Translations under genes and position numbers: made by a program
Part shown: in pieces, positions 990 to 34,866 of the stretch
Position numbering within the stretch: the stretch's first letter is position 1
Layout of the letters: the number at the start of each line of letters is the position of its first letter
Source of the DNA: a virus
Lineage: Duplodnaviria > Heunggongvirae > Uroviricota > Caudoviricetes
DNA length: 64,000 nt
Direction: 5' to 3' (one strand)
Virus record (IMG/VR): IMGVR_UViG_2880378312_000006
Notes under the pieces: generated by a model
Told to the model about the DNA's origin: nothing
Seen by the model: the letters and a program-made list of their open reading frames with translations, nothing else
The model's database searches: none

Positions 990-1259
990 ATGAACATACT
1001 AAAAAAACTTATGCAGCGTCTGTGCGGGCACGGAAAGCATGATGACCGTGAAGACGGGGAGTTACTTACAGCACAACTGCGTCTGGGGCCGGCAGACATC
1101 CTGGAGTCCGATGAGAATGGTATTATTCCGGAGCAGGACAGGGTAATCACGCAGGTGGTGATACTGGATGCGGATAAAAAGCAGATACAGTGCGTGGTAA
1201 GACCGCTGCAAATCCTGCGTGCTGACGGGACGTGGGAAAATATTGGCGGGATGAAGTAA
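990..1259 (+). CDS. Small conserved protein (89 aa) immediately downstream of the tail fibre; function unknown
   Basis: ATG 1 nt after the tail fibre stop; near-identical copy at 59798-60067; followed by a hairpin plus T-run. Confidence 0.55.
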   Translation: MNILKKLMQRLCGHGKHDDREDGELLTAQLRLGPADILESDENGIIPEQDRVITQVVILDADKKQIQCVVRPLQILRADGTWENIGGMK

Positions 1260-1274
1260 CCCGACAGCTTCACA

Positions 1275-1300
1275 AAACCGGAGTCCGGCTCCGGTTTTTG
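1275..1300 (+). terminator. Intrinsic terminator (hairpin ccggag/ctccgg plus T-run) after the tail fibre operon
   Basis: GC hairpin followed by ttttt; same structure after the duplicate copy near 60085-60110. Confidence 0.5.
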
Positions 1301-1371
1301 TTGTCATGTAAGGCAGATGTTTGTTAAAGCTATTTAAGTCTGGAGTTTAAATTAAAATAGGGAGTTTTATA

Positions 1372-1946
1372 ATGCCGTTAAATTCGGAGATTAGATCAAG
1401 CTCATTTTTAATGGATTGAATGTCCTTCGAGCTCAAGTAGCATCTAGCGGTCGAGGGGAGTTTACATTAGGTAATGAGACTGTCAGCATTGTATTTAATG
1501 AAACCGATGGGCGTTTTCTATCCAGCGGCAGTAGTGGGGGATTGCTTACTGAGTTATTCCTTTATGGGTTTAATAACGGCCCTGAAGCTCTTCGCGATAG
1601 GATGCTCAGTATGCTTTCGGACTCAGGTGAAGCACAATCGCAAGAGAGTATTCAGGACAAAATATCTCAATGTAAGTTTCCTGTTAGTTCAGGAAATTTC
1701 CAGTGCCCGCCAGAGTCTATTCAGTGTCCAATTACACTAGAGAGACCCGAAGAAGGAGTGTTTGTCAAAAATTCAGATAGTTCGGCAGTATGCTGCTTAT
1801 TTGATTTTGATGCATTTTCTCGTTTAGCTAGTGAAGGCTCATATCATCCACTGACCCGAGAACCAATAACGGCATCAATGATTATAAGTCCTGATAAATG
1901 TGTTTATGATCCTATCAAGGGAAACTTCATTATAAAAGATAGTTAA
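1372..1946 (+). pseudogene. nleG: nleG-family T3SS effector gene with an N-terminal frameshift
   Basis: ATG at 1372 gives MPLNSEIRSSSFLMD then a stop at 1417; the rest (ORF 1416-1946, no ATG) matches the intact homologue at 60181-60756 in another frame, including the conserved C-terminal CPITL...HPLTREPIT region. Confidence 0.7.
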
Positions 1947-2285
1947 AATATTTTTCTCTGAGAGAGTATTGGCTGTCAGTAATTTGTAAAAAAACGCCGC
2001 AGACATCCAGAATATAAGAAGGTGTCTGTGGTTGGCAGGTTTCAGATGACTTGAAGGCGTCTTTATGTAAATGCATTTTTCTGTGGAGATGTTGTCGGAA
2101 AATATTGGATTAAAAACATAATCCAAGTCAAATAGTAAGTTTGTTTTTTTTGAGATTAGGTGTGTGTATTTAGAATTTTTATGATGTGTTTATTTTGTGG
2201 GGTATTTTAGAAAAAATATATTAATCCTTATTAATAATAGCTGCCATCCATTTCAGCTATTATTTTAAAATAAACAAGTTAAAGC

Positions 2286-3611
2286 TTAGACTCTTGTTTC
2301 TTGGATTATATCAAAGATATCAACATGATTTGATGGATTATGATGTGGTAAGCCATTGCTTTCGATATCGATTACCACATCCTCTGGATTTGGATGCCGC
2401 TGTCCAACAGGGATACCTTCTTCCATTGCGCGTATATCAGCACCTGTGGCATGTTCAATATCTGCTTTATTGGGGAAAATAGCTCCTTCTCTTGCGTGCC
2501 ACCATATACGAGGATAGTCAGTGAATCTAGCTACTTCAAACTCGGCCTTGTTTAAATCGGCAGCCCCCAGTGTCGCACCAGCCCACCATAAAATAGTGTC
2601 TGGCTTTAATCCAGGGGTATTATACTGTATGGCATGCCCTGCTGCTTGCCCAACCATTGCACCGATATGAGGACTTAACATTGGATCTGTACTAGCAAAT
2701 CTGGATACTGCAAATCCCCCTAAAGCACCAAGCGCATTTGCGGCAGCATTGGTAAGAACGGCATATTTAGTATTAGGGTTATCTAAATCCCACTTGAAAT
2801 GTGCGCCAAACTCCAGCCCTAGAGTTGCCTGTAATGGAGATGCACCATATTTAAAATCTGCTTCTCCCGGTCTGATAACCCACTCCTCCGTGTAATTTGC
2901 TTTCGGCCCATCAGGAGTAAGTGGTGTTTCTCCAACAAGCTTCCATCCATTTTCAGTTTTGACTATAGGAAGTTCTACACCATGATTACGAACCACTTGA
3001 GCTGTTAATCCAAACCATGGTATTGGGTCTTTTGGCTCGGTGGTTACCGTCGAAGTAGTGGCTGATGTTCCAGTCGATGCAATAGTCGACACTGCAGTGG
3101 TTGATATATTACTGTTGCTTAATGCATTTTTTAACGGGCCAGGAAGGTCTTTAAAATTAAAACCTATTTCATCATGCAGAGGGAATATCTGTAAAAAATA
3201 ATTACCTGATGTAGGATGAATATCTGGTTTTACAATGTTTAGCTGGACACCATATTTACCAGAGATGCCTGAAACGGAACTAGGTATCTCTAATGCCATT
3301 TGGGTAACATTGAATAAACCAAACATATCCAATGTTTTTTTTCCTATGGATCCTTCTTCAAGGTGAGGAGCTATATATTCGTCTAGCCCTGAGAGCAGAC
3401 CTTTATCTTTTATCAAGCTCAGTAGAGCTGTTGTTTCACCGCATTCCGGTGCATGTTGCTGTATATCATCTGGAATATTAACAACAAATCCAGCTTGGCA
3501 TCCTAGAGGTAATTCGGATTGCGGTATTTGTGTAGAGGGTATTTGTTCTGTTTGATGATGTTGATTGTTTTGTGAGGTGATTCCAGATTGTATGGTCGGT
3601 TGAATGTTCAT
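2286..3611 (-). CDS. nleA: T3SS effector NleA (EspI), 441 aa
   Basis: 441-aa ORF starting MNIQPTIQSGITSQ and ending in the PDZ-binding motif ETRV; matches NleA from recollection; AT-rich upstream region. Confidence 0.85.
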   Translation of the reverse strand: MNIQPTIQSGITSQNNQHHQTEQIPSTQIPQSELPLGCQAGFVVNIPDDIQQHAPECGETTALLSLIKDKGLLSGLDEYIAPHLEEGSIGKKTLDMFGLFNVTQMALEIPSSVSGISGKYGVQLNIVKPDIHPTSGNYFLQIFPLHDEIGFNFKDLPGPLKNALSNSNISTTAVSTIASTGTSATTSTVTTEPKDPIPWFGLTAQVVRNHGVELPIVKTENGWKLVGETPLTPDGPKANYTEEWVIRPGEADFKYGASPLQATLGLEFGAHFKWDLDNPNTKYAVLTNAAANALGALGGFAVSRFASTDPMLSPHIGAMVGQAAGHAIQYNTPGLKPDTILWWAGATLGAADLNKAEFEVARFTDYPRIWWHAREGAIFPNKADIEHATGADIRAMEEGIPVGQRHPNPEDVVIDIESNGLPHHNPSNHVDIFDIIQETRV

Positions 3612-4001
3612 AATAAATCCTTATTACATGTTTATATCCATTAATAATATCAATCCATTGATACTATTAGTGTCACATATCCGATGTGGACAGCTTTAAT
3701 ATATAACTGTTTGAATGCTTGATTGATGTGACTTAGATCTCAAAATTAAGTTGTTAAATTTACCAGTTTATCGCTTGAACACTTAAAATAAATTATAAAT
3801 GTTTCTGTTATTGTTTTTTATAGTTTAAATTATTGTTGGTTGTATAAGCTGATTACATTTTTACTCTAAGTGTTATAAATATTTTATACTGATATTAGTC
3901 TTATTATATATTTTTTTAATGAAAATGAGCATAAAACTAAGACATATAATGCTTGGCAGCTTTATGCTCTTCTGATTGGCTGTATGTTTGATGACAAAAA
4001 A

Positions 4002-4036
4002 TTAGCGCAAGAGGACAAAAAATCACCTTGCGCTAA
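4002..4036. repeat. Perfect 10-bp inverted repeat (ttagcgcaag ... cttgcgctaa) with a 15-nt spacer; copy 1 of a roughly 170-bp diverged repeat
   Basis: Read directly; second copy at 6007-6041 with one arm substitution that keeps T-G (RNA G-U) pairing. Confidence 0.8.
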
Positions 4037-4271
4037 TGCTCTGTCTCAGGTCACTAATCACATCTAACTCATTGATTAATTGTGACTCTAAATGTAGTGT
4101 TTTGTCGCGTTTTGCAGTCTATCATTTAATCAATTGTATAAATAACATAATGATTTTTAATGTGTTTTTGTGATTTTATCCTCCTTCTGACATGGAAGTT
4201 GTTCGTTCAAAAATCTTATTAAATATCAAGTTGTTAAATCTGGTAAGTCATTATTGGTCAAAATAAAATCA

Positions 4272-5210
4272 TTATCCGATTTCAATTTTGTCCCACTCCC
4301 GCCCGCGACTGTCCCTATAATGCGCCGCCATTGAATCAGATTTATGTCCAAGAAGACGTTGTGCAAACTTGTAGCCAATCTGGTTCCGATATAGCCTCGC
4401 GGACAGACTACGTAGTTCATGAAATGTCGGTGGGTCTCCATCAAACGAGATCCCGGATGCATTTCGCGCCTTTGTTAAATACCGTGATACTGTGGCTGGA
4501 GAAAGTGGTTCGTGATAGGTTGATGCGATTATTGTTTCACTGCTGCTGGCCTCCCTGCATTTCTGTAGTGTATCAACCAGTGAGATGTCGAGTGCGTCAA
4601 TGGTTAGAGCCAGCGGAATGGCAATTTTGGCTCCTGTTTTACTCTGTCCAATGTGAAGATGACCATCGTTTATGTCTGACCACTTCATTCTGCACAAATC
4701 GCCCACTCTCTGCCCTGTAACGACAGCTAAATCCATTGACAGCCTCAGCCAGATGGGGAGGTGCTCAGCAGCATGGTAAATAGCGACATACTCATTAGCT
4801 GTCAGCCTTGAGCGCCTTACTTCTGACTTTGCTGCACGGGTTGTTGTTACTGGATTCGTTGCCACATGCCCCTCGGCTATTGCCCCTCGAAAAACGTCAA
4901 CAAGGGTTGACCTGATTACTCTTGCGGAAACCGCTTTACCTTCTGCGACGTAGGTGTTTAGCATTGCTGCCACCTCTTTCGTTGATATGTCAGTGAGCGG
5001 TTTGTCCGGCAATTTTCTTCGAATTGCCCTGATTTTGCTGGCGTAGTCGAGTAATGTTTTCGGCTTGCTCCCCCTCTAGCTGAGGATTGTTTCATATCGA
5101 TCAAGCCACGTATGAAGAGTGATTGAGTCAGTGCCTTTAACCCTGTCCAGCAATGATTCGTGCCCACTTTCGCTGAAAAGCTCAATGTTGGTGTGAATTC
5201 TACGAGCAAT
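4272..5210 (-). pseudogene. int: Lambda-type tyrosine integrase remnant (N-terminus replaced, internal amber stop)
   Basis: 246-aa ORF aligns with lambda Int from about residue 110 to the C-terminus (EGHVATNPV...HELRSLSARLY...GHKSDSMAAHYRD); the upstream frame reads ...TLHTWLDRYETILS-stop-RGSKPK where lambda has ILASRGIKQK; similarity ends near 5210. Confidence 0.8.
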
Positions 5211-5339
5211 GAAATGCCTCGTGGAAGGATGCAGTGATGATTTTAATCCTTTTGATATTATTAGGGTACCAGATCTTACTTACAACAAAGGATCTTTACA
5301 ATGTGGATGATTAGAGGCCTGTGAGCCTGTTTAGGATTC

Positions 5340-5991
5340 TGTGTAAATGCCTTTTCTTAAAAGTGACCGTCAAGACGGTCACCAAACTCGATAATAAAGC
5401 GGCTCATTGCCATTCGCCAGTCCCTTAACGGCATTGTCCATTTCTGTGACGCGGCCTGGATTGCCAGCCACACCACTTTTTTTACTGACTCGTCCGTCGG
5501 GAACACCTTGCGTTTCCTGATGGCATGCCGGATCACACTGTTCAGCGACTCGATGGCGTTCGTTGTGTAGATCACTTTGCGGATATCTGCCGGATAAGCG
5601 AAAAACGTCGCCAAGTTAGTCCAGTTTGACAGCTAGCACCGGCTTATCTGCGGATAGCGGCAGTCCCAGGCCGCAGCAAACGCTTCCAGTGCCTGCTGGC
5701 CTGCCTCTTCTGTGGGAGGCTAATCGCTTTCAGGTCGCGAGTGACGGCTTTGTATTCCTTCCATGACACGAAGCGCATGCTGTTGCGCACCATATGCACG
5801 ATGCATAACTGGATGCGGGCCTCCGGGAATTCTTTCAGGCCATACACACAGGCGATGAGGATATCGTTCAGACCGCGGTTTTTCAGTTCAGTCAGCACAT
5901 TGAACCAGAAATTCGCCCCTTCATTTTCGGCCAGCCGCATCCCCAGGAGCTCTTTCTGACCTGCGATATTGATGCCCAGTGCTAGGAACAT
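5340..5991 (-). mobile_element. IS256-family transposase remnant (frameshifted fragments)
   Basis: ORFs 5357-5614 and 5644-5991 carry IS256-family motifs (ILGINIAGQKELLG...LCIVHMVRNS...NAIESLNSVIRHAIRKRKVFPTDESVKK...WTMPLRDW); broken reading frame, no intact ends seen. Confidence 0.7.
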
Positions 5992-6006
5992 TTTTATGAT
6001 AAAAAA

Positions 6007-29163: not shown

Positions 29164-29730
29164 GTGAGCATAAATATGATATACCCGGAAATTACAGGCA
29201 AAAGCGGTGAGCATTTACGCCTGAAAACGCTGGAAAGTGTCTGGATCCAGGGGAAACTGCGTATGTGGGGGCGTTGGTCGTATATTGGCGACGGTAAGAC
29301 GGGAAATATGTTCAACCAATTACTGACCTCTAAAAAGCTGACAAAAACGGCAATTAACGAGGCGCTCCGGAGGATGAAAAAAGCGGGTCTGGACAAACCT
29401 GAACTTGAGGCTTTTTTGCGGGATATGATCAACGGCAATCAAAAAAGCTGGCTGGCACATTGTACCGATTCAGAGGCGTTAATAATCGATAGGGTTATTG
29501 GTGAAGTACTGGCAGGTTATCCCGGGCTGCTCAATGTTCTGAGTCAGCGTTATGTGGGGCGGGGGATGACTAAGCGCAAAATGGCTGAATTGCTGAATGA
29601 TGCACATCCGGAATGGAGTTTAAGAACCTGTGAAAGACGCATTGAGCATTGGCTAAAGGTGGCAGAATTTATTTTGTACAAACCAATGGTTATGGCTTTT
29701 GGTATAGAGAAAAAAGTTATTGCTTTTTGA
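29164..29730 (+). CDS. Q: Late antiterminator Q-like protein
   Basis: Gene immediately upstream of a short promoter-terminator unit and the tRNA/late-gene block; family assignment by position and recollection. Confidence 0.5.
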   Translation: MSINMIYPEITGKSGEHLRLKTLESVWIQGKLRMWGRWSYIGDGKTGNMFNQLLTSKKLTKTAINEALRRMKKAGLDKPELEAFLRDMINGNQKSWLAHCTDSEALIIDRVIGEVLAGYPGLLNVLSQRYVGRGMTKRKMAELLNDAHPEWSLRTCERRIEHWLKVAEFILYKPMVMAFGIEKKVIAF

Positions 29731-29831: not shown

Positions 29832-29954
29832 ATGACTGAAAAACGGCACGGGGCGTTAAACGCGCTGGTGGTTGCTAATACCGGTCTTTCAACTTGCTGG
29901 CTTTTTCGACAAGAGTTATTGGTATGTCACGTTAACCGGAAAAGGGAAAAAGAC

Positions 29955-30152
29955 ATGCTAAAACAGCAGGATATGACAGAAACCGCCAGAGTGGTGTTTA
30001 ATGAATTAAGCGTTACCGAACCGGCGACAGTCGGGGAGATTGCGCAGAATACTTACCTTTCACGCGAACGCTGCCAGTTAATACTGACCCAGCTGGTTAT
30101 GGCGGGTCTGGCAGACTATCAGTGCGGTTGTTACAGACGCATTCAGTCCTGA
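29955..30152 (+). CDS. Small hypothetical protein with winged-helix-like region (about 65 aa)
   Basis: ORF 29832-30152; the annotated ATG sits right after the terminator, so the internal ATG at 29955 with a purine-rich RBS is preferred. Confidence 0.3.
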   Translation: MLKQQDMTETARVVFNELSVTEPATVGEIAQNTYLSRERCQLILTQLVMAGLADYQCGCYRRIQS

Positions 30153-30287: not shown

Positions 30288-31001
30288 ATGGCTGTTGTCT
30301 GTTCAGTTATCATGGTTTGCTCCCCAATTAATATTTTTCTTGAAAAGGATACGTTGTCACTTAAGCCAGGCTCAGTCGTTCTGGCCACCAAATGCATCAG
30401 GGAGCTTTTCCTTATGCATTATGGCAAAGTTAAAATTGTCGATATAAGCGAATCCGTCGTAAGTCAATATCTGGAAAGTCAGCATAAGCTGACGAGGACT
30501 CGTCTGACTGACATTCCGCTTTACCTGTTGCTGGAACCCAACAATCCTGCGTTGGCTGCGGCTTTAATTACCAGCCAGGGATTTTCCGGAGAGGTCACGG
30601 ATATGTTTCTTATGATGGCCTGCCTGTCTCTGTTTGAAACAGATGAACGGATGTCATTGTTTTTAAGTGGATGTTTATCCAGCATAAGTGCCAAAGTCAG
30701 GGCGATAATTCAGACAGATATATCAGCAAGCTGGACGCTTGGTGCGATTGCTCTACAGTTGCATATGAGTGAGAGTTTGTTAAAGACAAAACTGAAAAAT
30801 GAAGGGGGCATGTTCAGTCGCTTGTTGCTGGAAGAGCGGATGCGTGTTGCTGTAAATATGTTATGTTCCCGGTATGGATATGGACAGGCTGTAGCAGAAA
30901 AATGTGGTTATTCAAGCCGGTCCTACTTTATTTCTGTATTTCACCGCTATTATGGCTTCCCGCCAGACAGATATGTATCCAGGCAAGGGCTTGATTATTG
31001 A
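30288..31001 (+). CDS. AraC/XylS-family transcriptional regulator, 237 aa
   Basis: C-terminal AraC-type HTH (...CGYSSRSYFISVFHRYYGFPPDRY); lies in the Q-dependent late region upstream of the tRNAs. Confidence 0.75.
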   Translation: MAVVCSVIMVCSPINIFLEKDTLSLKPGSVVLATKCIRELFLMHYGKVKIVDISESVVSQYLESQHKLTRTRLTDIPLYLLLEPNNPALAAALITSQGFSGEVTDMFLMMACLSLFETDERMSLFLSGCLSSISAKVRAIIQTDISASWTLGAIALQLHMSESLLKTKLKNEGGMFSRLLLEERMRVAVNMLCSRYGYGQAVAEKCGYSSRSYFISVFHRYYGFPPDRYVSRQGLDY

Positions 31002-31029
31002 TTTTCATCTGATTATTATTTTTTGGCTC

Positions 31030-31105
31030 GGCCCTTTAGCTCAGTGGTGAGAGCGAGCGACTCATAATCGCCAGGTCGCTGGTTCAAATCCAGCAAGGGC
31101 CACCA
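31030..31105 (+). tRNA. ileZ: tRNA with CAU anticodon, ileX/ileZ-like (tRNA-Ile lysidine type, or Met), 76 nt
   Basis: Cloverleaf folded by hand: 7-bp acceptor stem ggccctt/aagggcc, anticodon loop cuCAUaa, T-loop ggttcaaatcc, 3' CCA; near-identical to E. coli ileX from recollection. Confidence 0.85.
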
Positions 31106-31205
31106 TCACAAACCGCCATTAGCTTATCAGGAAGAGCAGACGACACCATAACAGGGTTGTTGGTGCGGGGCCGGGTCCCCGATGGCGGTCCATTATCGGT
31201 ATTCT

Positions 31206-31282
31206 GCGTTGTTAGCTCAGCCGGACAGAGCAATTGCCTTCTAAGCAATCGGTCAGTGGTTCGACTCCACTACAACGCGCCA
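31206..31282 (+). tRNA. argO: tRNA-Arg (anticodon UCU), 77 nt
   Basis: 7-bp acceptor stem gcgttgt/acaacgc, anticodon stem attgc/gcaat with loop cuUCUaa, T-arm agtgg-ttcgact-ccact, CCA end. Confidence 0.85.
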
Positions 31283-31451
31283 CACTTATTTTCCAGGCTC
31301 GCTTCGGCGGGCCTTTTTTGTATCTGCGCCACGCCCGGCGCATACCAACCACAGAGCCTTTCGGGGGTGAGCTTACGGAGTGGTCAGTGTGACTTTCTCT
31401 GTGGGCAGATCGCTCCCGGGCGTTGGCTCACCCACCCAAAGGAACGTCACG

Positions 31452-31883
31452 ATGTTTGGAATCTTCAAAAAGAAAACCCGCAGAGCGGCAACGGAAATTA
31501 AAAAGTTTGAAAAACGCGATCTGGCACAGGTGGTGATTAACGCCGCATACCTGGTGGCCTGTGCAGATGGTGAATGTGAGGCATCCGAGAAAGCGAAGAT
31601 CGAACAGGTACTGCGTAATCAGCCTGCGCTGTCCGCGTTTACGTCAGAAATTAATGCGATTAGCGCAACCATTATCGGTCAGCTGGATACGAACTTTAAA
31701 ACTGGTCGTCGTGCGGCGTTACGTGAGATTGAGGATGTGAAACACGATACGCGTGAAGCGGAAGATGTGCTGGATGTGGCGGTGGCCATTGCGGAGGCAG
31801 ACGGCGAAATTGAGCCGGAAGAGCGCAAGGTGCTGGAAGAGATTGCCGGTGTTCTGGGTCTTCGTCTGGAGAATCACCTGTGA
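31452..31883 (+). CDS. TerB-family (tellurite-resistance TerB-like) protein, 143 aa, in the position stx occupies in Stx phages
   Basis: Architecture parallels TerB: MFGIFKKK start, VACADGECEASEKAKI and VAIAEADGEIEPEERKVLEEIAGVLGL repeats of the ADG...E motif. Confidence 0.6.
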   Translation: MFGIFKKKTRRAATEIKKFEKRDLAQVVINAAYLVACADGECEASEKAKIEQVLRNQPALSAFTSEINAISATIIGQLDTNFKTGRRAALREIEDVKHDTREAEDVLDVAVAIAEADGEIEPEERKVLEEIAGVLGLRLENHL

Positions 31884-32047
31884 CGGTAAAACTGCGCCTG
31901 GCTGTGGCTGCACTCCTGCTGTTTCTGGTGGTGATGGTGGATTTCACCAGCAGAATCATGTCGGTGCTGGCGGATGGGGTGCTGGTCTGCGGCATTGTGG
32001 TATTGCTGTGGCCGGTGATAAAAAGAAACAGCCTGCATAATGCTTGA
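31880..32047 (+). CDS. Possible small two-TM membrane peptide (55 aa) coupled to the TerB-like gene
   Basis: GTG overlapping the upstream stop (cTGTGA); product VTVKLRLAVAALLLFLVVMVDF...VLVCGIVVLLWPVIKR; below the ORF-track size cutoff. Confidence 0.3.
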   Translation: MTVKLRLAVAALLLFLVVMVDFTSRIMSVLADGVLVCGIVVLLWPVIKRNSLHNA

Positions 32048-32360
32048 TTTTTTTGTTTGCTGTTTATTAAAAACACTTCTGCATGGTGAATCCCCCTGTG
32101 CGGAGGGGCGATCAGCAACCAGGTATATGGGATAATCGCGGATTCAGGTGCTGATACTGAATTCACCGGGAGGCACCCGGCACCATGCTTTGCCACAAAA
32201 GTGTTGTTTCTGTTTTTCTCAAACTATCATCGTTATCCCTTTATTTCCGGCTGCGCATGGCGCGGCTTTTTTTTACGACCAGCCACTGGCAGATGGTCAT
32301 CCTGTGATTTGATTCCGGTTCCGGCTTTTTAACTCTGTTCCTGTACACGGGAGAAATTCG

Positions 32361-34211
32361 ATGTCGATTAAACATTATGATGTTGTCAGGGCGGCGTCGC
32401 CGTCAGACCTTGCGGAAAAGCTGACACACAAACTGAAAGAGGGCTGGCAGCCGTTTGGTAGTCCGGTGGCCATAACCCCTTATACCCTGATGCAGGCGAT
32501 TACAGCAGAAGGTGATGTGGTGGTCAGTGGTGCAACTGAGCCGGATTGGTACTACGTCATCGTACTGGCCGGGCAGTCCAATGCCATGGCTTACGGTGAA
32601 GGGCTTCCGCTGCCGGATTCATACGATGCTCCGGATCCGCGCATTAAACAGCTGGCGCGCCGCAGTACAGTGACGCCGGGTGGGGCTGCCTGCAGATATA
32701 ACGATATTATTCCGGCCGACCACTGCCTGCATGATGTGCAGGATATGAGTACGCTGAATCATCCGAAGGCAGACCTGAGCAAAGGGCAGTACGGCTGTGT
32801 CGGCCAGGGGTTACATATTGCCAAAAAACTGCTCCCGTATATCCCGAATAACGCGGGGATCCTGCTGGTACCATGCTGTCGTGGTGGTTCGGCATTTACC
32901 CAGGGCGCGGAGGGGATATTCAGCGAGTCCACGGGGGCCAGCCAGGATTCGGCGCGCTGGGGTGTGGGTAAACCGTTATATCAGGACCTGATTGCGCGCA
33001 CCAAAGCTGCATTACAGAAGAACCCGAAAAATGTGTTGCTGGCGGTGTGCTGGATGCAGGGAGAGTTTGACATGAGCGCCGCCACCCACGCACAGCAACC
33101 TGCGCTGTTTACAGCCATGCTGACACAGTTTCGTGCTGACCTCTCCGTGTTTAACGCGCAGTGCCATGGTGGCAGTGCTGCAGATGTGCCGTGGATTTGT
33201 GGTGACACGACGTATTACTGGAAAAATACATACGCTACCCAGTACGACACCGTGTACGGCGGGTATAAAAACAGGGAGAGTGAGGGCGTTTATTTTGTGC
33301 CCTTCATGACAGACGGTAACGGCGTCAATACCGCCACTAACGCGCCGGCAGAAGATCCGGATATTCCGGCATCAGGATATTACGGTGCGGCATCGAGAAC
33401 GAATGGAAACCAGGTATCATCAAACCGCCCGACACATTTCAGTTCATGGGCGCGCAGGAGCATTATTCCGGATCGTCTGGCAACCGCTATTCTGAACGCA
33501 GCCGGGCGCACCTCAGCCTTCATCAGTGGTAAGGCACCGGAAATCAAACCCTCGCCCGGCGGCAACACGCCATCGGGTCCGTCTGCAGATACGTCCGTTC
33601 GCACAATCTCCCTGCTGCCGGCAGCCGGAGAGGCTGCTGCGCAGGGCTGGAGCATTAAGGATGGCGGAATTCAGTTGTCAGATGGTGTATTTAAGATCAC
33701 CAGGCAGAGCAATAAAACCTGGTCCCTGACGCATCCGGTGGATGACGCAATTACCCTGCTGACACAGGGCGGCAGACTGACCTGTAAGTTCCGCCTGTCA
33801 GGCGCACTGACCAACAATCAGTTCGGGCTGGGGATTTATCTGTATACGGACGCTCCCGTTCCTGATGGTGTGGCGATGACGGGTACCGGTAATCCGTTCC
33901 TGATGTCGTACTTCACTCAGACCACTGACGGCAGAGTGAATCTGATGCATCACAGGAAAGCCGGAAACACGAAGCTGGGGGAGTTCGGCGATTACGGTAA
34001 CGACTGGCAGACGCTGGAGCTGGTGTTCACCGCCGGCAGTGCCACGGTTACTCCGAAACTGAATGGAGTGGCTGGCCCGGCATTCCAGGTTATAAAAGAC
34101 AGTCTGACACTGGGACTGAATGCGCTGACGCTGACGGATGTTACAAAAAATGCAGCGTATGGCGTTGAGATAGAAAGTCTGATGCTGGAGATAAATGCAC
34201 CGGCAGCATAA
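32361..34211 (+). CDS. nanS-p: Prophage sialate O-acetylesterase NanS-p-like protein, 616 aa
   Basis: N-terminal DUF1737-like region MSIKHYDVVRAASPSDLAEKL and an SGNH/SASA esterase motif (LAGQSNAMAYGEG); position between the tRNA/stx locus and the holin as in Stx phages. Confidence 0.75.
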   Translation: MSIKHYDVVRAASPSDLAEKLTHKLKEGWQPFGSPVAITPYTLMQAITAEGDVVVSGATEPDWYYVIVLAGQSNAMAYGEGLPLPDSYDAPDPRIKQLARRSTVTPGGAACRYNDIIPADHCLHDVQDMSTLNHPKADLSKGQYGCVGQGLHIAKKLLPYIPNNAGILLVPCCRGGSAFTQGAEGIFSESTGASQDSARWGVGKPLYQDLIARTKAALQKNPKNVLLAVCWMQGEFDMSAATHAQQPALFTAMLTQFRADLSVFNAQCHGGSAADVPWICGDTTYYWKNTYATQYDTVYGGYKNRESEGVYFVPFMTDGNGVNTATNAPAEDPDIPASGYYGAASRTNGNQVSSNRPTHFSSWARRSIIPDRLATAILNAAGRTSAFISGKAPEIKPSPGGNTPSGPSADTSVRTISLLPAAGEAAAQGWSIKDGGIQLSDGVFKITRQSNKTWSLTHPVDDAITLLTQGGRLTCKFRLSGALTNNQFGLGIYLYTDAPVPDGVAMTGTGNPFLMSYFTQTTDGRVNLMHHRKAGNTKLGEFGDYGNDWQTLELVFTAGSATVTPKLNGVAGPAFQVIKDSLTLGLNALTLTDVTKNAAYGVEIESLMLEINAPAA

Positions 34212-34402: not shown

Positions 34403-34578
34403 TCAGAAGGATAGTTGGATTTCACATGATACTTATGCCTGGCGGTATATTTTCTGACAGACAGTGACGGGTGTTGTCAAGATATTGTGTCATTTATAAC
34501 CTGAATCAGGGGGTGGCCGGAATGTTATCTGGCATTTTTAGCAGAGCCTGAATGCCATAATCACGGCTCCCGGCGTTG

Positions 34579-34609
34579 GCCGTCAGTGGGTGACACTGGC
34601 GGCTTTTTT
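34579..34609 (+). terminator. Strong intrinsic terminator about 50 nt upstream of the holin gene
   Basis: gccgtcagtg...cactggcggc hairpin followed by tttttt. Confidence 0.6.
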
Positions 34610-34659: not shown

Positions 34660-34866
34660 ATGGAAAAAATCACAACAGGTGTGTCATACACCACGTCAGC
34701 GGTGGGGACGGGATACTGGTTACTGCAGCTGCTGGACAAAGTCTCTCCGTCCCAGTGGGTGGCGATAGGCGTGCTGGGGAGTCTGCTGTTTGGGCTGCTG
34801 ACATATCTGACGAACCTGTATTTCAAGATTAAAGAAGACCGGCGTAAGGCGGCGCGGGGAGAGTAA
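34660..34866 (+). CDS. S: Holin, phage 21 S-type pinholin, 68 aa
   Basis: [25 protein letters not shown]...[15 protein letters not shown] closely matches S21. Confidence 0.9.

Follow-up and report, generated by a model that had tools for sequence, protein, structure and literature searches.

A tciA-tciB accessory cassette, homologous to that of phage P1, in the stx slot of lambdoid prophage Sp11

What occupies the position of the stx genes in a prophage whose late region resembles that of a Stx phage, and what might it do there? The question was raised by an earlier note on a 64,000-nucleotide stretch of DNA from a member of the Caudoviricetes (IMG/VR record IMGVR_UViG_2880378312_000006; hereafter the window), in which the slot seemed to hold a TerB-like gene followed at once by a gene for a small hydrophobic peptide. 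The whole window proved to be 100% identical both to prophage Sp11 of Escherichia coli O157:H7 Sakai and to EDL933, and both genes are already in RefSeq, as ECs_2190, "TciA/TerB-like protein" (WP_001302123.1), and ECs_5731, a DUF3927 protein (WP_000216636.1). By homology, positions 31452 to 32047 are the tciA-tciB accessory cassette of the lambdoid prophage Sp11, the counterpart of tciA/tciB in phage P1 (facts on P1 were drawn from GenBank record NC_005856 and later papers). The pair had been named in P1 and annotated in the very same genome, two points absent from the earlier note. For the Sp11 locus, our analysis is therefore mostly a clarification, the "unusual cargo" being an ordinary annotated tciAB cassette. 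The features of the locus are listed in Table 1.

Table 1. Features in and around the tciA-tciB cassette (positions in the window)
Feature	Position	Strand	Evidence
Q-like late antiterminator (ECs_2193)	29164-29730	+	Pfam DUF1133 E=3.7e-105, Phage_antitermQ E=5.9e-8; Sakai annotation "phage antiterminator"
ORF between Q and PsrB	29832-30152		
PsrB, prophage AraC-like regulator (Z2104 / ECs_2191)	30288-31001	+	HTH_AraC E=2.9e-13; YdeO/GadX-like (NCBIfam); Sp11/OI-57 position
tRNA with anticodon CAU, annotated ileZ (tRNA-Ile2; Sakai ileZ5)	31030-31105	+	ARAGORN; Rfam tRNA 72.5 bits
tRNA-Arg (UCU), argO (Sakai argO5)	31206-31282	+	ARAGORN; Rfam
Terminator-like hairpin (31295-31314) and U tract, directly after argO	31295-31322	+	Scan: 8 pairs, 6 G-C; fold -14.6 kcal/mol, z=-3.96
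tciA (ECs_2190), ATG to stop; 143 aa, TerB family, predicted cytoplasmic	31452-31883	+	Pfam; PHROG; PDB 2JXU; AlphaFold2
tciB (ECs_5731), GTG to stop; 55 aa, hydrophobic, DUF3927	31880-32047	+	Pfam; PHROG; alignments; dN/dS
STnc100-family sRNA element, 5 nt after the tciB stop	32052-32224	+	Rfam RF02076, 104.7 bits vs gathering score 47
Second terminator-like hairpin (32249-32267) and U8, between cassette/sRNA and esterase gene	32249-32275	+	Terminator scan; fold -12.9 kcal/mol
nanS-p-like SASA carbohydrate esterase (ECs_2189)	32361-34211	+	Pfam DUF1737, SASA, DUF6645
Class II holin (ECs_2188), opening the lysis cassette	34660-34866	+	Sakai and EDL933 annotation

TciA, TciB and the coupling of their genes

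The tciA gene is preceded by a Shine-Dalgarno-like AGGA (31440-31443) 8 nt upstream of its start codon. Its 143-aa product had been placed in the TerB family from the letters alone, with a profile search proposed as the check, and this assignment was confirmed: TerB (PF05099) matched residues 31-138 with an E value of 3.7e-14 and 53.4 bits, above the curated cut-off of 24.4. PHROG 632 matched as well (E value of 1e-68), and a sequence search aligned Klebsiella TerB (PDB 2JXU) with residues 15-137 (E value of 2.9e-7). AlphaFold2 predicted a TerB-like fold of six helices (pLDDT 82, pTM 0.77), for which the best PDB matches in Foldseek were 2H5N (prob 1.00, TM 0.53-0.60) and 2OU3 (prob 0.80), the latter described as "tellurite resistance protein of COG3793"; because the Foldseek E values ranged from 0.01 to 0.6, the support from the fold is only moderate. 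Two A-D-G...E motifs (D39-G40...E46 and D117-G118...E124) were invariant or nearly so in one alignment and largely kept across 12 distant phage homologues in another, and these duplicated acidic motifs of the TerB family are the proposed metal-binding residues. The profile matches and the model together show TciA to be a putatively soluble, full-length TerB-fold protein that keeps both motifs. It shares 41% identity with TciA of P1.

The second gene, tciB, has a Shine-Dalgarno-like GGAG (31868-31871) 8 nt upstream of its GTG. Its product matched DUF3927 (PF13064; E value of 4.3e-17, 62.3 bits against a cut-off of 25) and PHROG 1470, "TciB-like" (E value of 4e-30), and is 58% identical to P1 TciB over residues 21-51. 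The DUF3927 family is small, with 115 representatives at an E value of at most 1e-3 among 1.84 billion proteins, nearly all of them 50-65 aa long, and in our alignments the conserved residues of TciB were K4, D21, D32-G33, W44-P45 and K48. The description of a 55-aa hydrophobic peptide starting with GTG was thus borne out, but its supposed two-helix topology was not: AlphaFold2 modelled a single continuous helix (residues 3-54, pLDDT 90). We dropped a hairpin model of TciB, as this one long helix was all that AlphaFold2 yielded.

The two reading frames overlap by 4 nt (cacCTGTGAcgg), the GTG of tciB overlapping the tciA stop codon (GTGA) just as had been described from the sequence. This overlap was preserved in 78 of 80 related loci, while the folding of the junction was nothing unusual (z=0.17). 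Values of dN/dS well below 1, 0.02-0.10 for tciA and 0.12-0.35 for tciB, indicate that both genes are under purifying selection.

Single-protein scans of IMG/VR with TciA returned close relatives only; the diversity sample consisted of GenBank phage records and one genome per species. Of 38 diverse loci from phages and prophages, about 33 had a small membrane ORF next to the TerB-like gene, among them loci of virulent phages. A DUF3927-type ORF began between -10 and +4 nt from the tciA stop in 12 of 19 phage loci (among them P1, D6, N4-like Pollock, Erwinia jumbo phage ChrisDB, Pseudomonas phage Nican01, Pantoea phage LIET2 and Salmonella phage Arash) and adjoined it in the genomes of 15 of 19 bacterial species. 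Since in almost every lineage the tciB start lies on or next to the tciA stop, both proteins would be made from one message, probably by coupled translation. The sequence comparisons indicate that the coupling of TciA to a membrane partner is ancient.

The partner is not always of the same kind. In Pseudomonas AF, Ebordelon, P. juntendi and Paracoccus, the neighbour abutting TciA is an unrelated protein of about 67 aa that has a membrane segment at its N terminus; in Vibrio phage MS02, the only locus seen with such ter neighbours, the TerB homologue directly follows TerD-TerD-x-TerC; and in Vibrio K480 an Na_Ca_ex membrane protein is encoded two genes downstream. Such changes of partner, to TerC or to an unrelated small membrane protein, suggest that TerB belongs to a unit tethered to the membrane and acting in lytic growth. 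Neither protein strictly requires the other, because TciB occurs without TciA in phages 434 and 2B8, and phiM5, PMBT3 and Marinomonas prophages have TciA but no small membrane ORF with it. The 247-aa membrane protein preceding the lone TciB of phage 434 showed no similarity to TerB (hhalign probability 0.1). Apparent natural TerB-DUF3927 fusions (P0006, P0066, P0248, P0287), considered as evidence of interaction, were rejected as frameshift or chimeric artefacts.

The stx slot and late transcription

A comparison with the stx-flanking regions, as the earlier note had suggested, supported its placing of the cassette in the stx slot at nucleotide resolution, with homology to Stx phages on both flanks. 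Stx2 phages share window positions 31026-31330, with ileZ and argO as the common left flank; beyond that, their sequence departs into stx2A. The terminator-like hairpin marks the left edge of the slot, the homology stopping near 31330. On the other side, a Stx1 phage shares positions 32067-32188, which lie about 95 nt after its stxB. The STnc100 element forms the constant right border: it also follows stx2B, stxB and other tciB genes, and members of its family were found after the cargo in Min27, 75/02 Stx, JLK-2012 and Klebsiella Kp4866-6. A nanS-p-like esterase gene likewise lies after stx in Min27 and 75/02 Stx. The cassette was present in 836 of 5426 complete E. coli genomes (about 15%), with a median of 6 and up to 10 matching places per genome, and EHEC genomes carry several tciAB copies each, those of O157 numbering 5-10 and being near-identical. 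Far from being an unusual replacement for stx, the cassette is a usual, frequent cargo of this slot.

The layout claimed for the late region held as to its elements, in that Q, both tRNA genes, the nanS-p-like esterase gene and the holin gene are all present. It failed as to the terminator and tRNAs following directly on Q: two genes, an ORF and psrB, intervene, and strong terminator-like hairpins flank the cassette instead. PsrB, the identity of which is published (PMC10877973), lies between Q and the tRNAs and is context outside the cassette.

The Q-like gene is the start of a one-strand late unit that holds the cassette. Our scan listed no promoter-like site on the plus strand in positions 31020-33392, and so none between the left terminator and tciA. 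From the position between Q and the lysis genes on one strand, the terminators and this lack of promoter-like sites, we infer that transcription of the cassette is Q-dependent and induced together with lysis. Lying between two intrinsic terminators with no promoter-like site, the Sp11 cassette would be read only by Q-modified, terminator-resistant RNA polymerase. Searches for published expression data gave no locus-tag matches for ECs_2190 or its neighbours, and none in the supplements of an O157 prophage-induction transcriptome. Sp11 itself is defective, with its repressor and integrase disrupted, and shows no excision, replication or packaging after mitomycin C (PMC2669165).

The setting in other phages is of interest here. 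The genes of phage LMessi run from Q through one small ORF, TciA, TciB and two small ORFs to the holin. In P1, tciABC lies downstream of the C1-repressed ban promoter, its transcripts are reported to be induced in P1vir infection (bioRxiv 10.64898/2025.12.28.696737), and tciA, tciB and tciC are non-essential, their knock-down by CRISPRi being without effect on plaque formation (PMC10695390). The pair is also present in strictly virulent phages, both N4-like and jumbo.

Proposed function and alternatives

We propose that tciAB encodes a co-translated TerB protein and its membrane partner and acts as a dispensable fitness module of the lytic phase, a reading to which we give about an even chance of being right. 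TciB would sit in the inner membrane and keep TciA on its cytoplasmic side, and would thus do for TciA what TerC, a polytopic membrane protein, does for TerB in the ter operons of bacteria; a TerB-TerC complex has been published (Turkovicova 2016, as cited in PMC12054061 and PMC11003894). What the pair would influence is the physiology of membrane, cations or stress in infected cells that are going through the lytic cycle, not in lysogens, and it would be a dispensable aid to fitness and not a toxin. We infer TciA-TciB binding, membrane location and metal binding, and found no experiments on any TciA or TciB in the literature searched. Counting against the model are the single long helix modelled for TciB, the occurrence of either protein without the other, the artefactual nature of the apparent fusions, the defective state of Sp11, and the place of the most conserved residues of TciB (D21, D32-G33), which lie in or near a polar stretch in the middle of the peptide. 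These residues are not at the termini, which would face TciA in a hairpin.

The homology to TerB of terZABCDEF and the many copies retained in EHEC genomes could also point to lysogenic conversion, with the pair expressed in the lysogen and protecting it against tellurite, pore-forming colicins or superinfecting phages; small inner-membrane proteins are, moreover, a common form of superinfection exclusion. Tellurite, pore-forming colicin and phage resistance are the three ter-operon phenotypes, and this is the reading behind the P1 name "tci". We judge such a role unlikely, in that terminators insulate the cassette, which lacks a promoter-like site, and conservation of the pair extends to N4-like and jumbo phages that are strictly virulent and form no lysogens. 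TerC and TerD, the reported minimal tellurite-resistance unit (PMC12054061), are absent from the locus, which offers a TerB homologue only. The authors of the PMBT3 and FSL SP-058/076 genome papers likewise doubted tellurite resistance, and our search found no published test of any phage TciA for resistance to tellurite, colicins or phages. Phages are known to turn homologues of defence components against host defences, and TciA might be a decoy, a phage copy of TerB that competes for the membrane partners of host TerB systems such as Shango or the phage-inhibiting ter operon. TerB domains do occur in the anti-phage system Shango (bioRxiv 10.1101/2022.11.11.516204), terC contributes to phage resistance (PMC12054061), and ter islands are present in O157:H7 (PMC3064760). 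We nevertheless hold a decoy to be distinctly unlikely: because its conserved acidic motifs are kept, TciA looks like a working TerB and not a crippled mimic, the Vibrio phage with TerD, TerC and TerB together suggests that phages use Ter functions and do not block them, and no meaningful PADLOC match was obtained.

Two further readings make TciB the active party. Small and hydrophobic, with basic ends, and encoded in the late unit upstream of the lysis genes, it might be a holin- or antiholin-like protein regulated by TciA that sets the timing of lysis, and class II holins are similar in size and in having two hydrophobic segments. This is very unlikely, given that a separate class II holin gene lies 2.6 kb downstream, that in P1, N4-like and jumbo phages the pair lies in early or tRNA regions, well away from the genes for lysis, and that TciB matched no holin family in Pfam or PHROGs. 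The least probable role, and the one raised by the earlier note, is that of a toxin-like or sensor-effector pair made up of a soluble sensor and a membrane effector that harms the cell. A soluble protein joined to a small membrane protein does resemble the architecture of some abortive-infection and toxin systems, and PADLOC gave one very weak match for TciA (PDC-S48, E value of 0.005 over 35 residues). It gave none for TciB, however, and no toxin, antitoxin or defence family was matched in Pfam, PADLOC or NCBIfam; genomes bear up to 10 matching places at no obvious cost, the knock-down in P1 leaves plaque formation unaffected, and virulent phages carry the pair. The reading is not supported.

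A bolder form of the proposed TerB-membrane partner model, to which we assign only a small chance, is that TciA-TciB is a minimal phage-borne counterpart of TerB-TerC. TciB, with its two near-invariant, membrane-embedded aspartates, would then be a small membrane subunit that handles cations or substitutes for TerC and is controlled by TciA, and its switching-on in the lytic cycle of many unrelated temperate and virulent phages would adjust the envelope of the infected cell or its ion state. If so, a possible purpose would be to block superinfection, colicin entry or the triggers of abortive infection, and it would be no accident that the pair repeatedly lies next to phage tRNA genes, the two being expressed under one programme.

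Beyond Sp11, purifying selection maintains the pair in lambdoid, P1-like, N4-like and jumbo phages. The membrane partner comes from two unrelated families, and is TerC in one phage, a pattern suggesting that TerB proteins need a partner to act at the membrane. Phage P1 or the small temperate phage LMessi would be an easy genetic system for the question of TerB function.

Comparison with known systems

The closest relative is tciA-tciB(-tciC) of P1, as annotated by Lobocka et al. (2004), in which a TerB-like protein of about 141-143 aa is likewise followed at once by a DUF3927 protein of about 54 aa, tRNA genes adjoin the cassette, and the position implies transcription in the lytic cycle. Unlike Sp11, P1 and D6 have a third peptide, TciC, of 36-37 aa with a single membrane segment, and TciC-like peptides were seen only in these two phages. 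None follows tciB in Sp11, where the sole ORF (32040-32135, 31 aa) is unrelated, too little hydrophobic and located over the STnc100 element. The P1 cassette also belongs to the C1-controlled ban operon, whereas that of Sp11 is in a putatively Q-dependent late unit.

With stx1AB and stx2AB, tciAB shares a slot that has ileZ-(argN)-argO and a terminator on its left and, on its right, the STnc100 element followed by the nanS-p esterase and holin genes, although the proteins and their function are unrelated. The AsxR/AgvB antisense sRNA genes, which adjoin STnc100 in Stx phages, were not detected in the window.

With TerB of terZABCDEF (2JXU), TciA shares family, length, colinearity over residues 15-137, the predicted all-helical fold and the A-D-G...E motifs, and the proposed union of a soluble TerB with a membrane partner would be analogous to TerB-TerC. 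In contrast to ter operons, the locus is phage-borne and has no TerZ, A, C, D or E, and a 55-aa DUF3927 protein takes the place of polytopic TerC as partner. The annotated Sp11 region holds no ter genes, and tellurite resistance is not expected from TerB alone.

A further analogy may be drawn with E. coli DjlA and YebE (DUF533), in which a TerB-like domain is held at the inner membrane; TciA matched DjlA (NCBIfam, E value of 4.2e-7) and DUF533 (E value of 1e-5), both below the curated cut-off. In DjlA and YebE the anchor is part of the same polypeptide, whereas in the phage pair a separate small protein, translated together with TciA, would provide it.

The coupled tciA and tciB genes and their products

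The earlier note had described a gene for a TerB-like protein followed by one for a membrane peptide, and its coordinates and description of both open reading frames (ORFs) agreed with the ORF listing and the sequence (see the table at the end of this section). The two genes overlap by 4 nt (CTGTGA), and each start codon lies downstream of a Shine-Dalgarno-like motif. Across 80 related IMG/VR loci, dN/dS was 0.02-0.10 for tciA (dS up to 0.67) and 0.12-0.35 for tciB (dS up to 0.68), and the GTGA overlap together with the upstream GGAG was conserved in 78 of the 80; a few alleles were truncated or frameshifted. These results showed that the genes for a TerB-fold protein and for a small hydrophobic partner are coupled and are both under purifying selection.

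The TerB membership proposed for the larger product was borne out by a Pfam TerB match (E value of 3.7e-14, 53.4 bits, cut-off 24.4), and TciA was also assigned to PHROGs family 632 'tellurite resistance' (E value of 1e-68). Klebsiella TerB (PDB 2JXU) could be aligned with it end to end (E value of 2.9e-7, TciA residues 15-137 versus 21-144). The AlphaFold2 model, built with 20 homologues, consists of six helices (pLDDT 82, pTM 0.77), and its top structural matches in the PDB were 2H5N and 2OU3 (the second entered there as a COG3793 tellurite-resistance protein), with TM-scores of 0.4-0.6 and weak E values. TciA contains two A-D-G...E motifs (D39/G40/E46 and D117/G118/E124), both of which are kept, along with an N-terminal MFG-x-F-KKK motif, even in phage homologues at 27-40% identity.

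TciB matched Pfam DUF3927 (E value of 4.3e-17, 62.3 bits, cut-off 25) and PHROGs family 1470 'TciB-like' (E value of 4e-30), with conserved residues K4, D21, D32-G33, W44-P45 and K48. Among 1.84 billion proteins, this small family has 115 representatives, almost all of them 50-65 aa long. Of the two hydrophobic helices originally described, the hydrophobic stretches are present (residues 7-20 and 26-47, separated by a polar D-F-T-S-R turn); however, AlphaFold2 predicted a single continuous helix, and a hairpin is therefore only presumptive. TciB occurs without TciA in phages 434 and 2B8, and no TerB likeness was found in the membrane protein that precedes TciB in phage 434.

Features in the window and in sampled loci (L-numbers label individual loci)
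Locus	Feature	Coordinates	Strand	Remarks
Window	106-aa ORF	29832-30152	+	directly 3' of Q; PHROG 331 (unknown function), E value of 1.2e-47
Window	PsrB gene (Z2104, OI-57)	30288-31001	+	AraC-like; between Q and tRNAs
Window	Left-flank homology	31026-31330		Stx2 phages; ileZ, argO, terminator-like hairpin
Window	tRNA genes	31030-31282
Window	Cargo slot	~31331-32051		filled by tciAB
Window	Shine-Dalgarno-like motif	31440-31443		AGGA, 8 nt upstream of tciA start
Window	tciA	31452-31883	+	ATG ORF, 143 aa
Window	Shine-Dalgarno-like motif	31868-31871		GGAG, 8 nt upstream of tciB start
Window	tciB	31880-32047	+	GTG ORF, 55 aa
Window	STnc100-family sRNA element	32052-32224	+	Rfam RF02076, 104.7 bits; begins 5 nt past tciB stop
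Window	Right-flank homology	32067-32188		Stx1 phage 75/02
Window	Two terminator-like hairpins	34516-34604	+	just upstream of holin gene; second with 11 pairs
L006 (Pollock)	Small annotated ORF	3486-3572
L006 (Pollock)	Group I intron	3559-3911		Rfam RF00028, 101 bits
L088 (AF)	~67-73-aa partner	4432-4653		absent from deposited annotation
L093	~67-73-aa partner	4443-4646
L094 (Nican01)	Small membrane ORF	4435-4617		absent from deposited annotation
L089 (K480)	TerB homologue region	4924-6003		Na_Ca_ex protein two genes after
L110 (MS02)	ter cluster	1036-4426		TerD, TerD, unknown gene, TerC, TerB homologue

The stx slot and its borders in prophage Sp11

Many E. coli O157:H7 chromosomes, Sakai and EDL933 among them, match the 5.2 kb around the cassette with 100% identity. 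In Sakai the cassette lies within prophage Sp11 as ECs_2190 'TciA/TerB-like protein' and ECs_5731, and the EDL933 RefSeq names are 'tellurite resistance TerB family protein' and 'DUF3927 family protein'; the pair is thus already annotated in this genome, and the observation is correct but ordinary. Sp11 is defective, with repressor and integrase disrupted, and circularisation, replication and packaging were not observed after mitomycin C (PMC2669165).

The claim that the cassette occupies the stx slot was confirmed at nucleotide resolution on both flanks. On the left, Stx2 phages align with the window and then diverge, stx2A of Stx2 phage Min27 beginning 43 nt past the end of homology; on the right, alignment with Stx1 phage 75/02 resumes ~95 nt after stxB, ahead of the esterase gene. 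These homologous flanks therefore delimit the slot. The STnc100 element also follows stx2B (Min27), stxB (75/02) and tciB (JLK-2012, a Klebsiella phage), and is therefore the constant boundary of the slot on its right side. STnc100 is related to PasD sRNAs according to a 2026 preprint. In Stx phages it lies next to the antisense genes AsxR/AgvB, which were not detected in the window. The cassette has a terminator-like hairpin with a U tract on either side (-14.6 and -12.9 kcal/mol), and a scan between the left hairpin and tciA detected no promoter-like site.

From Q through the lysis cassette, every gene lies on one strand. The PsrB gene, on the same strand as Q and within the would-be late transcription unit, encodes a characterised prophage protein that regulates acid resistance and type III secretion (PMC10877973). 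The 106-aa ORF gave only weak, winged-helix-like Pfam matches, and its Sakai version, ECs_2192, is shorter. The hairpins upstream of the holin gene, which matched no Rfam family, lie in the esterase-holin gap, the site of PasA/PasC-type prophage sRNAs according to a 2026 preprint.

The 596-nt cassette was present in 836 of 5426 complete E. coli genomes, at a median of 6 matching places per carrier genome and up to 10 (7 in Sakai). EHEC transcriptome or ribosome-profiling reads from tciAB are consequently not assignable to one prophage. Judged by name, the named organism groups from the TciA search included no 'Stx...-converting phage' (three single-record groups were unnamed). Hence, while the earlier note had the slot right, its emphasis on tciAB as a stand-in for stx has to be reversed: tciAB is what the slot ordinarily contains, and stx is the special case.

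Membrane partners of TciA homologues across phages and prophages

The comparison covered 38 loci: 19 were phage loci representing no fewer than 12 unrelated phage types, and the other 19 came from bacterial genomes, one per species. A DUF3927-type ORF starts about -31 to +4 nt from the tciA stop in 27 loci, including lambdoid phages, P1, D6, Klebsiella phage-plasmids, N4-like Pollock, an Erwinia jumbo phage, Pseudomonas Nican01, Pantoea LIET2 and Salmonella Arash. In four loci (Pseudomonas AF, Ebordelon, P. juntendi and Paracoccus) the neighbour is an unrelated protein of ~67 aa with a membrane segment at the N terminus. This second partner family (~67-73 aa; L088, L093, L126 and L128), with the motif C-x-[WF]-YGY-x-x-ER...VGC...G-[WY]-VPR-x-EL-R, abuts the TciA homologue and replaces DUF3927; it matched no Pfam family. 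In two loci, an IMG/VR contig and a Pantoea genome, the stop is abutted by other, unclassified small hydrophobic ORFs of 26 and 49 aa, respectively, and six have no small membrane ORF (Vibrio phages vB_VpaP-MS02, here MS02, and K480, phiM5, PMBT3 and two Marinomonas prophages). These counts sum to 39 because the Pantoea 49-aa locus was scored twice, first as DUF3927-type and then, better, as unclassified. The pair was thereby shown to occur in many unrelated phages, virulent ones among them.

Two of the six loci with no small membrane ORF nevertheless have a membrane protein near the TerB homologue: in MS02 the homologue directly follows TerC, and in K480 a membrane protein of the Na+/Ca2+-exchanger family is encoded two genes further on. 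MS02, of virulent type, thus carries a phage-borne ter cluster. In the Nican01 record, the small membrane ORF falls in an 890-bp unannotated gap. In Pollock, ~450 nt separate the tciB homologue from a downstream group I intron; the 5' end of the intron overlaps the small annotated ORF, and the intron ends just before the 'ATPase, N4 gp24-like' gene.

Genes for tRNAs were found less than 1 kb from tciAB in 9 of the 38 loci, in unrelated backgrounds: Sp11, JLK-2012 (whose set, Asn-Thr-Gly, differs from that of Sp11), P1, D6, the Erwinia jumbo phage, Franconibacter, Paracoccus and two MAG prophages (the window, L001, L005, L007, L091, L112, L113, L127 and L128). The distance was 1.4-2.3 kb in three further loci. 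Such proximity looks far above chance for a single accessory gene, though it is not universal, and may stem from a common expression programme or from location in a shared accessory region.

Possible roles of the pair and known relatives

We suggest that the small protein would be a membrane partner of TciA, because a TerB-TerC complex has been published (as cited in PMC12054061 and PMC11003894), because DUF3927 is replaced elsewhere by another small membrane protein or TerC, and because single-chain, membrane-anchored TerB domains exist. The pair would be produced in lytic development, presumably by Q-modified polymerase in Sp11, after loss of C1 in P1 and by default in virulent phages, and might tune a property of the infected cell that relates to its membrane, cations or stress. 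We give this model as a whole an even chance and any specific physiological role a far smaller one.

A resistance determinant expressed in the lysogen is a weakened alternative, given that TerC and TerD are lacking, that terminators insulate the cassette, and that virulent phages carry the pair too. An anti-defence decoy is an improbable but possible alternative: TerB domains occur in Shango (bioRxiv 10.1101/2022.11.11.516204), and ter operons inhibit phages (PMC12054061). A holin-like role of TciB is at odds with where its gene lies in P1, N4-like and jumbo phages. The toxin or sensor-effector pair suggested earlier found no support, since a genome-wide CRISPRi screen of P1 scored tciA, tciB and tciC each as non-essential (PMC10695390), PADLOC gave no meaningful match, and a genome may carry the cassette at as many as 10 places. 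What the observation still offers is a testable lead, from the partner pattern, on the role of TerB-like proteins.

By sequence, the Sp11 genes encode TerB and DUF3927 family members, and their identity as a P1-type tciAB cassette is nearly certain. They do not belong to a ter operon. In the P1 record, tciA (TerB-like), tciB (DUF3927) and tciC (36 aa) lie downstream of the C1-controlled ban promoter with flanking tRNA genes, and tciABC has been described as induced during P1vir infection (bioRxiv 10.64898/2025.12.28.696737). Sp11, in contrast to P1, lacks tciC. In DjlA and YebE/DUF533, to both of which TciA gave weak matches, the TerB domain is membrane-anchored within a single chain.
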